Shown here: positions 9,199-24,161 of the stretch, piece after piece
How positions within the stretch are numbered: position 1 is the first letter of the stretch
How the letters are laid out: every line of letters starts with the position of its first letter
Source of the DNA: a virus
Taxonomy: Duplodnaviria > Heunggongvirae > Uroviricota > Caudoviricetes
Direction: 5' to 3' (one strand)
Length of the DNA stretch: 45,219 bases
IMG/VR virus record: IMGVR_UViG_2721755646_000014
Position numbers and translations under genes: made by a program
The notes under the pieces: model-generated
The model's input: only the letters and a program-made list of their open reading frames with translations
What the model was told of the DNA's origin: nothing
Database searches by the model: none

Positions 9199-9369
9199 TC
9201 AACATCTCGTGTGATTAATTAAAACGTCTCTCGCCATTCCAATAACATACGAGAACTCATGACCGTAGTCGTAGCATCTGCCGGAATAGTTCGATTGAAT
9301 GGTTTCAGCAGTCGCCGGGGCAGATGAAATCATCACCTGCGTCAGCTGTGAACGTTCATACAAAGCAGA
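9199..9369 (-). CDS. Short hypothetical ORF ([24 protein letters not shown]…); possibly the start of a truncated tail gene
   Basis: Follows the gp11-like gene; its first 24 codons recur at 16265-16338 fused to terminase sequence, marking the duplication junction; low-GC sequence at 9062-9198 separates it from K. Confidence 0.25.
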
Positions 9370-9493
9370 CATTCTGCCTCCTGATAATAAAACCCGCACG
9401 CGGCGGGTTATGGGTTCTGTTGAAAATTACACCGTGACCTGAAACTCCAGGGTTGCACGGTAACAGCGGTTTTCCGGAATATAGTCCTGCATT

Positions 9494-9769
9494 TCACTGA
9501 CGGACCGGGGCCAGCAGCATTATGGCTTCACGGGCGTCCTGACGTATCTGACGCGCCTGCGTCACAGTCCCGGCATAAACGTCTATCTGCACCGACACTG
9601 AGGACTCCGCCTGCCCGCCCATCACGTCCGCCGACACCGATGAAATCAGGCTGAAAACCACCCACGGAAGCGCCACCGACGGCCTGCCATCCAGCAGGGG
9701 GACCACATACGGGTACACCTGCCCGCCGGCAAGATGCGCCAGATGAGGATACAAATCCGCCTCCGTCAT
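9494..9769 (-). pseudogene. gp11-like (DUF3168) head-tail protein, copy A, C-terminally shortened by a frame change
   Basis: Identical over 88 aa to the 114-aa copy B ORF 16398-16742, then diverges. Confidence 0.55.
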
Positions 9770-10161
9770 CGTCTCAGTACCTCATCAATGGCCCGGTTCA
9801 TCCGAGCAATCGCCACCTGTGCCGCCTGTTCACTGCGCACATCAAATGCCGGGCGCACAAACGGGTGCGGTGGCATATTCACGGTCCCCATTTCCACAAA
9901 CCGCCAGTAGAAAGCATTGCGCGGGTTATCCGCCTTCATGGTGTTATCGCTGTTACCGGTGTCCGGATTAACACCCCGGATATGCACACCGGATTCCATC
10001 CCGCCATCGCGGGAGCACCGGGAAAGGACCACCACATTGCGGCGAAGTTTTCCCCTGCGTACCGGTGCCCGTGACACCACTTCTTCTTTCAGCACATTCG
10101 CACCCGCACGGGTTGCCTCACGCAGCACCCGGTTATTTTCCGCACCACTCAGAAGCTGCAA
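9766..10161 (-). pseudogene. HK97 gp10-like head-tail protein, copy A, N-terminally shortened
   Basis: 131 aa, matches copy B ORF 16739-17185 (148 aa) apart from the missing N-terminus. Confidence 0.55.
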
Positions 10162-10179
10162 ATCGCGGCTGATGTCCTC

Positions 10180-22436: not shown

Positions 22437-22451
22437 ATCAGCCTCCTGAAA

Positions 22452-22474
22452 ATAAAAAAACCGCCGCAGCGGTT
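22452..22474 (-). terminator. Putative rho-independent terminator after the terminase large subunit gene
   Basis: Minus strand reads aaccgctgcggcggttttttt (GC hairpin followed by a T-run) between the terminase stop and the protease RBS. Confidence 0.45.
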
Positions 22475-22499
22475 CATGATGGTTACAGTGTGAACAGGG

Positions 22500-24161
22500 T
22501 TATATGAAAAAAACCGCATATTCTTTCTTTTTCGGTTCCGGGTTAAGGGACATCAGGGAGACCGCATTGAACAGCGCCATCAGCGGGTCAATTTTTCCCC
22601 GTCCACTGGCCTGTTTGGTGATAAGAATGGCGTTACCTTTAGGCTCCACCCGGGCATTGCCGACACACCAGGCCATCAGGGGCTGGTCACCATGCACCAG
22701 CACCCCTTCAGCCAGTTTGCGCTCGGTGGTTTTAATGGCCCCGCCCAGTTTCCAGCCCTGGCTTATCCCCACCACAATTCCGTCGGGGATCCCGGCTTCC
22801 GCCAGTGAATCCAGAATCTGCCCCACCCCTGACGGGTCAATACCGATATGGTCCAGTAACTCAGCCTCATGAATGCGACGCACATATTCCGCCACTTCCG
22901 CCGTGTCATCCCCGACACGCCGGACAATGGTCATATCTCCACAGGCAACAAGATCCTGAAACCGGGACGCCTCGCTCTTCCGTCGGACCACCGCGGTTTC
23001 ATGCGCCCAGGCATGGCCCCAGCCCAGCCATTCGCGGGTTTCCCTGTCACGGCCAATCACGTACATTCCCAGCAGATCATCCAGGCCCCCGCCGTCAATC
23101 CCCACCGTCACCACATCAGCGCGCTGCAGGATATCGTCCAGGCTGACGCGCCTGCCCTGCTGCTCCCAGAAATCCGCACCCGCCCAGCGGTCAGAACGCA
23201 GGGCAAGACCAATTTCCACATTGGCATGTTTTGACATGAAGCCACGAAATGCTTCCTCACCAGCCTCCCGGGCTTTACGGTACTCCCGGTACAGAAAAGC
23301 CTCATCCACCGAATAACCGAGATTCGGGTTAACCATGGCGAGGTTTTCCATCAGCAGGTGAGCCCCGCTTTCCACCATTTCAGGAGGATGCTCAAAAATC
23401 ACCGGCAGAAAGTGCGGATCATGAATTTTGCCGTCACGGACATCCCGGGCGTACTGCAGTTTCTGTCTGAACACCCCGGCTGGCGGCTCATTCGACTGGG
23501 TGGTCGTATACACCACAAACCCTTCCGGGCGGGAGGCAAGGCCGCCTATGGCTTCACGTAACATGTCCTCCGCTTTGTACTGCTTGCCAAATAACCACAG
23601 TTCATCAATCAGCGTCCCCACGGACTTGATACCGGATACCGTATTCGGATCGGCAGCCACCACCTTCAGGGTGGTGTCCGTCACCCTGTGGGTGATGGTC
23701 CGGATATGTGTCTGCACCTGACAGAGGTCATCCAGATCATCGTCCCGTCGTACCATATCCCTGGCAGGGTTGAAGGCGTTAGCCGCCACCTCCACGGTCG
23801 GGGCCAGAATGGTGTAGCCCGCCGCCTGCCGCCAGTTCAGTAACAGCGCCGTCATCATGATCCCGGCAGCCAGCGTGGACTTGCTGTTTTTCTTGGGGAT
23901 AAGGATAAAAACTTCCTTGATATGGCGTACACCGGTCTGCGCATCGTAGGAGCCAAACAGGGCCGCCACCAGGTCAAACACCCACTGTGCGCAGGACTCC
24001 CCGAACGTCGGGCTGCCCGGTGCATCCACAATCCGCAGTTGTTTAAAAATCGCCAGGGCATGTGCGGCCTGCTCCGGATAAATCGGAGCCGGAATAATCG
24101 ACAGCCCCTTTTTCAGGCGCTCTGCCCAGTCCGGGCAGGCCGTGCTCCACACAGGTATCAT
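22500..24161 (-). CDS. Terminase large subunit
   Basis: 553-aa intact ORF; 4-bp overlap with the upstream small-subunit gene; identification by sequence recall and position. Confidence 0.8.
   Translation of the reverse strand: MIPVWSTACPDWAERLKKGLSIIPAPIYPEQAAHALAIFKQLRIVDAPGSPTFGESCAQWVFDLVAALFGSYDAQTGVRHIKEVFILIPKKNSKSTLAAGIMMTALLLNWRQAAGYTILAPTVEVAANAFNPARDMVRRDDDLDDLCQVQTHIRTITHRVTDTTLKVVAADPNTVSGIKSVGTLIDELWLFGKQYKAEDMLREAIGGLASRPEGFVVYTTTQSNEPPAGVFRQKLQYARDVRDGKIHDPHFLPVIFEHPPEMVESGAHLLMENLAMVNPNLGYSVDEAFLYREYRKAREAGEEAFRGFMSKHANVEIGLALRSDRWAGADFWEQQGRRVSLDDILQRADVVTVGIDGGGLDDLLGMYVIGRDRETREWLGWGHAWAHETAVVRRKSEASRFQDLVACGDMTIVRRVGDDTAEVAEYVRRIHEAELLDHIGIDPSGVGQILDSLAEAGIPDGIVVGISQGWKLGGAIKTTERKLAEGVLVHGDQPLMAWCVGNARVEPKGNAILITKQASGRGKIDPLMALFNAVSLMSLNPEPKKKEYAVFFI

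Follow-up and report, generated by a model that had tools for sequence, protein, structure and literature searches.

A tandem duplication of the head gene module in prophage Sp6 of Escherichia coli O157 644-PT8 is very probably an artifact of assembly or finishing

The DNA analyzed here (IMG/VR record IMGVR_UViG_2721755646_000014), a 45,219-nt stretch referred to below as the window, is part of NZ_CP015831.1, the record of E. coli O157 strain 644-PT8, which it matches at 100% and in which window position 1 is record position 3,493,266. Coordinates are positions within the window unless the record is named, and negative values lie to the left of its position 1. The locus is prophage Sp6, beside potB, and a block of phage head genes of about 7 kb is found there twice in direct tandem, as a left-hand copy A of raw-draft quality and a right-hand copy B that is polished. 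We conclude that, beyond the damage in copy A, the duplication itself is very probably artificial. That it is an artifact of assembly or finishing, of whatever kind, is in our judgment nearly certain, and it is highly likely that a raw nanopore draft copy was joined to a polished copy at a site of the enzyme used for optical mapping, NcoI. We favor an artifact because the seam between the copies is a fusion of two NcoI sites in a genome that was finished by hand against an NcoI map.

The two copies differ by insertions and deletions alone

A direct-repeat scan and a blastn comparison of the window with itself delimited the copies as head-to-tail direct repeats at 9299-16268 (copy A, 6,970 nt) and 16265-23338 (copy B, 7,074 nt). 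The self-blastn alignment runs over 7,075 columns with 0 mismatches and 106 gap columns, and a global alignment resolves the gaps into 68 deletion events in copy A and a single 1-nt insertion, with 0 substitutions. Measured against copy B, the deletions comprise 42 of 1 nt, 17 of 2 nt, 7 of 3 nt, and 2 of 4 nt, a sum of 105 nt. A preliminary description of this DNA, made from the letters alone, had reported a head block of about 7 kb present twice in direct tandem; both alignments agree with it, and the two pairs that it gave as examples (ataataaaaccc versus ataataaaaaaccc, and ggaccgggg versus ggatcccgggg) are events 1 and 3 of the alignment. It was also right that copy A is about 100 bp shorter, but not that the shortfall comes almost entirely from 1-nt deletions, which make up 62% of the events and 40% of the lost bases.

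The tabulation of indels against substitutions in their homopolymer context, which the same description had proposed as a check, gives the 68 deletions, one insertion, and no substitution listed above, together with a shortening of long homopolymers: all 12 runs of six and all 3 runs of seven are truncated in copy A, as are 10 of the 20 runs of five. A difference made of indels only, in homopolymers or motifs and free of substitutions, is the pattern expected of an artifact. Divergence with a natural mutation spectrum, or equal quality of both copies, would have spoken for a genuine duplication, and neither was found.

Draft-quality sequence extends beyond the duplicate

For strain 644-PT8, MinION reads (SQK-MAP006, R7.3 2D) at a 2D coverage of 26x gave two chromosomal contigs in a Canu 1.1 assembly (Cowley et al. 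2016, PMC5320650). The MinION data date from 2015, a contig of ∼200 kb was placed twice by hand to fit the in silico NcoI sites to an OpGen optical map, and CP015831 is the resulting MinION-based construct (PMC5320650). Its sister isolate 180-PT54, which is 3 core single nucleotide polymorphisms away, is available as a single-contig, Quiver-polished PacBio assembly (PMC5320650) and served as the reference for a census of errors.

Compared with Sp6 of 180-PT54, the 644-PT8 record has no differences in the 13.2 kb up to -1312, then 144 deletions, 12 insertions, and 0 true substitutions from -1312 to 16051 (17.4 kb), and from 16265 onward (17.6 kb) an extra A at 16391 as the sole difference. Two apparent substitutions at 9301 and 9306 are an alignment overrun at the junction between the left flank, termed X, and copy A. 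Sparse 1-nt errors reach 1.3 kb past the left end of the window, and they are the only errors in the polished part of X (1-3900), which holds the exchangeable-effector region of Sp6 with IS2 and the 3' end of espN. In the remainder of X (3900-9298, minus strand), espN, nleL, the truncated tail genes I and K, and the 3' end of the antirepressor gene Ant are all broken by deletions of 1-4 nt, at a density of 9-14 deletion events per kb. The preliminary description was therefore right that copy A is riddled with deletions, but the damage goes beyond this copy, and the same dense pattern continues leftward to ∼3,900. The raw-draft block occupies window ∼3,900-16,268 (12.3 kb), and copy A is its right-hand 7 kb.

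Homopolymers of at least 5 nt, scored by position against 180-PT54 in order to remove any effect of base composition, are altered in 3 of 67 cases between -6000 and 3999 and shortened in 38 of 41 cases from 4000 to the X/A junction at ∼9,297. A further 27 deletions, 2-4 nt long, remove mixed sequence. Deletions are enriched near GATC (6.9% versus 2.5%, p=0.0035) and near CCWGG (6.2% versus 1.6%, p=0.0006). The final kb of copy A still contains 8 events, the last error lying at 16051, and quality changes abruptly at the seam with copy B, with 158 events relative to 180-PT54 in the 17.4 kb on its left against 1 in the 17.6 kb on its right. This abrupt change, together with a poor stretch that extends beyond the duplicate into the single-copy gene espN, is what an artifact would leave.

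The NCBI annotation (PGAP) follows the same boundary. To the left of the A/B junction, espK, espO, IS2, espN (in five DUF4765 pieces), nleL, K, and all genes of copy A are called frameshifted; all genes to the right of it are intact. The genes espN, nleL, and K are intact in 180-PT54 and in a clean copy with 100% identity at record 2657402-2665302. The flanking single-copy genes are as badly broken as those of copy A, and the damage is thus not peculiar to the duplicate.

The error profile fits an unpolished consensus of R7-era nanopore reads, an assignment that draws on the methods of the published assembly and on the error pattern. As in an unpolished Canu draft from R7.3 Oxford Nanopore 2D reads, errors are dominated by deletions at ∼1.3-1.5%, homopolymers of at least 5 nt are truncated, short stretches of mixed sequence are skipped, and deletions are more frequent near the Dam and Dcm methylation motifs. 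We also considered whether the errors could stem from PacBio data alone and rejected this, as the paper describes a MinION assembly for this record and the error pattern fits nanopore. Overall, the preference of the preliminary description for consensus error in a poorly polished repeat is supported by the lack of substitutions among 69 events, the shortened homopolymers, the damaged single-copy neighbors, and the switch in quality at the junction. The other reading that it had kept in play, a genuine recent duplication with decay, is set aside by the mutation spectrum and by the identical damage in flanking single-copy genes.

Two observations concern the edges of this region. The espK, espO, espN, and nleL "pseudogenes" (window 1-9298; record 3,491,029-3,502,568) are sequencing artifacts, these genes being intact at record 2,657,402-2,668,962 and in the sister isolate. 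At window 16391, 126 nt from the seam, copy B has a run of seven A where the sister isolate and two other loci of 644-PT8 have six, which looks like an error at the edge of polishing.

The junction between the copies is a fusion of two NcoI sites

The window contains four CCATGG (NcoI) sites in 45 kb, at 5721, 16263, 23333, and 44687, and the repeat unit is exactly one NcoI fragment of 7,070 bp, which runs from the site in the major-tail gene V to the site in the large terminase gene TerL and has no internal site. At the A/B seam (16263-16268), the TerL NcoI site is fused to the V NcoI site in the sequence GGGTTAA-CCATGG-TTTCAG, and it is here that quality switches. The junction had been placed at ∼16265 in the preliminary description, a position that stands and can be refined, the shared sequence being the 6 nt CCATGG at 16263-16268. 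Copy A is thus cut at its right end at the TerL NcoI site and abuts polished sequence that starts at the V NcoI site; the natural site inside TerL, which forms the right end of the repeat unit, lies at 23333-23338. For random breakpoints, the chance that both A/B breakpoints fall within CCATGG sites is ∼3e-7. A seam on the site of the mapping enzyme, in agreement with the documented assembly procedure, is a hallmark expected of an artifact. The arrangement is also a head-to-tail junction with 6-nt microhomology, as a genuine duplication would show, but this feature does not discriminate, since an in silico join at a restriction site gives the same result.

The seam creates a hybrid open reading frame (ORF) on the minus strand, from 16338 to 16048, in which residues 1-24 of the major-tail protein V are followed by a Met common to both genes and then, in frame, by TerL from residue 276, until a 2-nt deletion in copy A terminates it. 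This agrees with the earlier observation that the first 24 codons of the downstream ORF are fused in frame to internal terminase sequence.

The left end of copy A has a different structure. Alignment with Sp6 of strain Sakai and comparison with the clean arm of the inverted repeat of this genome place the X/A junction, GATTGAAT joined to GGTTTCAG, at 9290-9302. Its left side is the genuine Ant breakpoint of the strain, and its right side lies inside the V NcoI site, which is destroyed.

The record holds a second chimeric junction of the A/B type at ∼2,879,039, where the P7 tail-fiber gene meets nleL of Sp6 through the fusion of two different natural NcoI sites. In the sequence of this second seam, GGGAACCAG-CCATGG-(G)TCTCTAAATC, one G is inserted at the join, and a single nucleotide is deleted at a distance of 20 nt. 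The "hybrid prophage" at this place may also be a product of editing.

We compared these junctions with 5,426 complete E. coli genomes and searched the 32-mers of the window junctions in IMG/VR as well. The A/B seam, the second seam, and the X/A junction each occur in this record only among the 5,426 genomes. Both window junction 32-mers had 0 matches in IMG/VR, where the natural V and TerL contexts, used as positive controls, were found in 14 and 44 contigs, respectively. The A/B junction is therefore without counterpart in close relatives and in the other copies carried by this genome, as an artifact would be.

The deposited layout mimics the natural NcoI map

In silico, the deposited locus yields NcoI fragments of 10,209, 6,938, 10,542, and 7,070 bp; natural Sp6 of 180-PT54 yields 10,208, 6,966, 10,782, and 7,069 bp. 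The 10,542-bp fragment, which extends from the NcoI site in nleL (5721-5726) to the site at 16263, mimics the natural one of 10,782 bp. Exchange of a tail block of 7,125 bp for a head-unit copy of 6,970 bp has altered this one fragment by 2%, a change that we judge to be below the resolution of an optical map. The equivalent fragment of prophage P7 measures 10,826 bp, and therefore several different pieces fit the same slot of the map. The authors of the genome stated in validation that "all NcoI sites have lined up nicely" (PMC5320650). The false layout probably passed validation because its NcoI fragment sizes are indistinguishable from those of natural Sp6 on an optical map. Where different fragments of a repeat region are similar in size, concordance with an optical map is no validation of that region.

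Other loci and close relatives carry a single head unit

In Sakai and 180-PT54, natural Sp6 reads, starting at potB, espK-espO-IS2-espN-nleL-I'-K-Ant-Arc-Arc-L-M-H-T-G-V, followed by one head unit, TerL, and TerS. Sp6 of Sakai is a CP-933-type lambdoid prophage with an HK97-like head module and an espK/espN/nleL effector locus. The window resembles it in gene content and order, its left flank being 98.8% identical to that of Sp6 from E. coli O157:H7 Sakai with indels only, and its right side carries the same protein accessions as Sp6 of 180-PT54. It departs from natural Sp6 twice: the 7.1-kb tail block (Ant-Arc-L-M-H-T-G-V) that lies between K and gp17 in the natural prophage is absent between the left flank and copy A, and the head unit, single in the natural prophage, is doubled.

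Copy B has matches in 1,256 of the 5,426 genomes and is 100% identical to NZ_CP015831.1. Sp6 of 180-PT54 and Sp6 of Sakai each carry a single intact head unit, as do the two polished 644-PT8 loci derived from Sp6. The 507 other genomes with an espN-nleL region have one copy of it each, but in the 644-PT8 record it has matches in three places.

The first of the two polished loci, record 2,637,402-2,685,302, is the other arm of the inverted repeat. It is fully polished, with espK, espN, and nleL intact; Ant is joined there to the tape-measure gene, after which come T-G-V, a single head unit, and late genes of the P7 type. The Ant/H junction in this arm, GATTGAAT joined to GGCCTGCGG at record ∼2,657,330, is clean and strain specific and has no NcoI site. 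Compared with 180-PT54, 3,892 bp are deleted here, the microhomology is 1 nt, and the outcome is an Sp6/P7 hybrid prophage; the junction is probably a genuine rearrangement linked to the 200-kb inverted repeat. The second polished locus, record 2,851,502-2,895,372, continues past the second NcoI seam with nleL-K-Ant-Arc-L-M-H-T-G-V and a single head unit. We sought a full natural copy of X, tail block, and head unit in 644-PT8 and found none; the pieces are present separately at these two other loci.

The head unit is identical at four clean loci (Sp6 and P7 of 180-PT54 and the two loci of 644-PT8), copy B deviating from them by its extra A at 16391, and the best match to the unit in 180-PT54 lies in P7, a different prophage. 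The unit is therefore an exact repeat of at least 7 kb, present in at least 3 copies in the genome, which reads of the 2015 era could hardly span. The left breakpoint of the X/A junction lies within 2 nt of the real Ant breakpoint, which is the point where the arms of the inverted repeat cease to be identical, and a contig made from a collapsed repeat would be expected to end there.

Proposed origin of the duplication and alternatives

Most likely, pieces delimited by NcoI sites were joined in silico, which would have produced the seam at 16263-16268. The draft block would then have drawn no polishing reads, real reads fitting other loci better, and polishing with long reads placed at their best alignment would have left several kb of genuine X unpolished on the left of the false junction. 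The true locus most likely has a single head unit, with either the natural tail-gene block or the Ant/H deletion of this strain in front of it. The case resembles known false tandem duplications in long-read and hybrid assemblies, which come from untrimmed overlaps or manual scaffolding errors: the copies are adjacent, one is of draft quality, they differ by indels only, the change in quality falls at the junction, relatives lack this junction, and the repeat is a multicopy prophage sequence. What sets it apart is that the seam coincides exactly with restriction sites of the enzyme used for optical mapping and that the true restriction map is retained in the false layout. Because of these two features, the cause looks like map-guided cut and paste rather than an ordinary assembler overlap.

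Several points weigh against map-guided finishing. The absence of junction-spanning reads is something that we infer and did not observe. The paper describes no polishing, though most of the record has clearly been polished, and our account of the unpolished block is thus a reconstruction. The X/A junction, at which the draft block passes from the real Ant breakpoint directly to the V NcoI site, is not an NcoI-NcoI fusion, and map-guided finishing does not explain it. In addition, genuine illegitimate recombination could also leave a 6-nt microhomology, 644-PT8 truly carries rearranged prophages of the Sp6 type, as the clean Ant/H junction illustrates, and a similar tandem duplication in the independent assembly of strain FORC_044 could mean that the module is prone to real duplication.

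The alternative that survives best, though we regard it as improbable, is a false duplication made by the assembler itself, through an untrimmed overlap at a contig end, a chimeric read, or a read mislaid in an exact repeat of at least 7 kb, with the NcoI coincidence due to chance. An exact unit of this length present at least 3 times per genome was very hard for MinION reads of 2015, quality worsens toward the junction as it does at a contig end, the comparable tandem in FORC_044 has no NcoI site at its junction, and the X/A junction is no NcoI-NcoI fusion. This alternative must, however, attribute to chance that both A/B breakpoints fall on CCATGG, of which there are four in 45 kb (p ∼3e-7), that a second unique chimeric junction in the record is also NcoI-NcoI, and that NcoI is the very enzyme named in the manual procedure of the authors.

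Very improbable, in our view, is a real tandem duplication in 644-PT8, made for example by template switching at CCATGG while the 200-kb inverted repeat formed, the arm being merely unpolished MinION data. In its favor, prophages of this strain have truly been rearranged, one example being the clean Ant/H junction with its identical Ant breakpoint; according to the authors, the construct agreed with the optical map; and real illegitimate recombination typically leaves microhomology at its junctions. Yet the optical map cannot separate this layout from the natural one (10,542 versus 10,782 bp), and the microhomology is precisely the site of the mapping enzyme, here and likewise at the second seam. 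Polishing reads should map uniquely to junctions that are themselves unique, but raw sequence extends all the way to both of them, and the change in quality coincides exactly with the seam. A real duplication would also require one V breakpoint to have been used at two junctions, and there is a single unit in the sister isolate, which differs by 3 core SNPs, as well as at two other loci of the record. Were the duplication real, a second head module would have taken the place of the Sp6 tail block in one arm of the inverted repeat, by template switching at ATGG/CCATGG microhomology; this would be a compact, length-preserving replacement of a prophage module within ∼1 year of divergence from the sister isolate.

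An old genuine duplication with one copy decaying into pseudogenes has a negligible probability: although each gene of copy A is disrupted and those of copy B are intact, 69 indels with 0 substitutions are not a natural spectrum and effectively refute it, the shortening of essentially every homopolymer of at least 6 nt indicates measurement error, flanking single-copy genes with intact versions at other places in the record are damaged alike, and the junction is absent from the 5,425 other genomes.

A similar duplication in FORC_044 and consequences for the record

E. coli FORC_044 (NZ_CP016755.1 2857073-2871660), an assembly from Seoul, contains a 7.3-kb tandem duplication of the same head module, the copies lying at positions 2110-9388 and 9388-16697 within NZ_CP016755.1 2854964-2874001. 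As in the window, a TerL fragment is fused to a truncated V (a 237-nt fragment) and the left copy has more frameshifts. The breakpoints are different, the microhomology is 2 nt, and no NcoI site is involved; moreover, 35 substitutions, 34 deletions, and 5 insertions separate the two copies and cluster in the 162-nt repeats of the portal gene. We considered FORC_044 as an independent natural occurrence of the same junction and rejected this on account of the different breakpoints and spectrum. The FORC_044 duplication is an independent event, and it suggests that the multicopy head module is especially liable to misassembly of long reads or, with lower probability, to real duplication.

The biological weight of these results is small, as they reveal no new element or mechanism. 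Their practical value lies in a warning about this RefSeq record and about trust in optical-map concordance within repeats. Under map-guided finishing, the "complete genome" NZ_CP015831.1 holds a 12-kb block of raw draft, a false 7-kb duplication, a missing tail block, and at least 1 other chimeric seam. These errors yield spurious espK, espN, and nleL pseudogenes, a spurious V-TerL fusion ORF, and several fragmentary portal "proteins," all of which can contaminate analyses of pangenomes, prophage types, and effector repertoires; the errors also have a bearing on the published account of prophage duplication and recombination in this outbreak strain.

Genes of the repeat unit and additional observations

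The repeat unit is the HK97-like lambdoid head module of prophage Sp6, with its genes in canonical order. Pfam searches matched Terminase_2, TerL_ATPase and TerL_nuclease, Phage_portal, Peptidase_S78 and Phage_capsid, Phage_connect_1, Phage_HCP, HK97-gp10_like, and Tail_completion_gp17, and the PGAP names agree. All genes are on the minus strand, as long intact ORFs in copy B and as fragments alone in copy A. Copy B, the authentic polished unit according to Pfam and to comparison with 180-PT54 and the other 644-PT8 loci, contains V' (the truncated V, 16264-16338), gp17 (16398-16742), an HK97 gp10-like gene (16739-17185), the head closure (17182-17532), connector (17542-17868), and portal (17865-20287) genes, a protease-major capsid fusion (20499-22436), and the TerL C-terminal half (22500-23338). 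The intact TerL gene (22500-24161) runs rightward out of copy B and is followed, outside the repeat, by TerS (24158-24721). Copy A contains V', gp17, the gp10-like gene, head closure, connector, portal, protease-capsid, and the TerL C-terminal half in the same order, each of them frameshifted.

The C-terminal part of the portal gene contains three tandem repeats of 162 nt (54 codons) that are 90-95% identical, at 18300-18840 in copy B and 11304-11840 in copy A. PGAP calls the portal frameshifted at every locus in both strains and in FORC_044; the frameshift, near the 3' end, is probably natural or the result of variation in repeat number.

Two features of the left flank concern the effector genes. 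Their G+C content is 30-36% over espN and nleL (window 2000-8000), against 54-61% in the phage structural genes, and low G+C content is typical of horizontally acquired effector cargo at the ends of lambdoid prophages. A pair of 66-nt inverted repeats with 85% identity (1405-1469 and 3971-4035) surrounds an AT-rich effector region of ∼2.5 kb (30-36% G+C) beside IS2 and may be a remnant of the ends of a mobile element.

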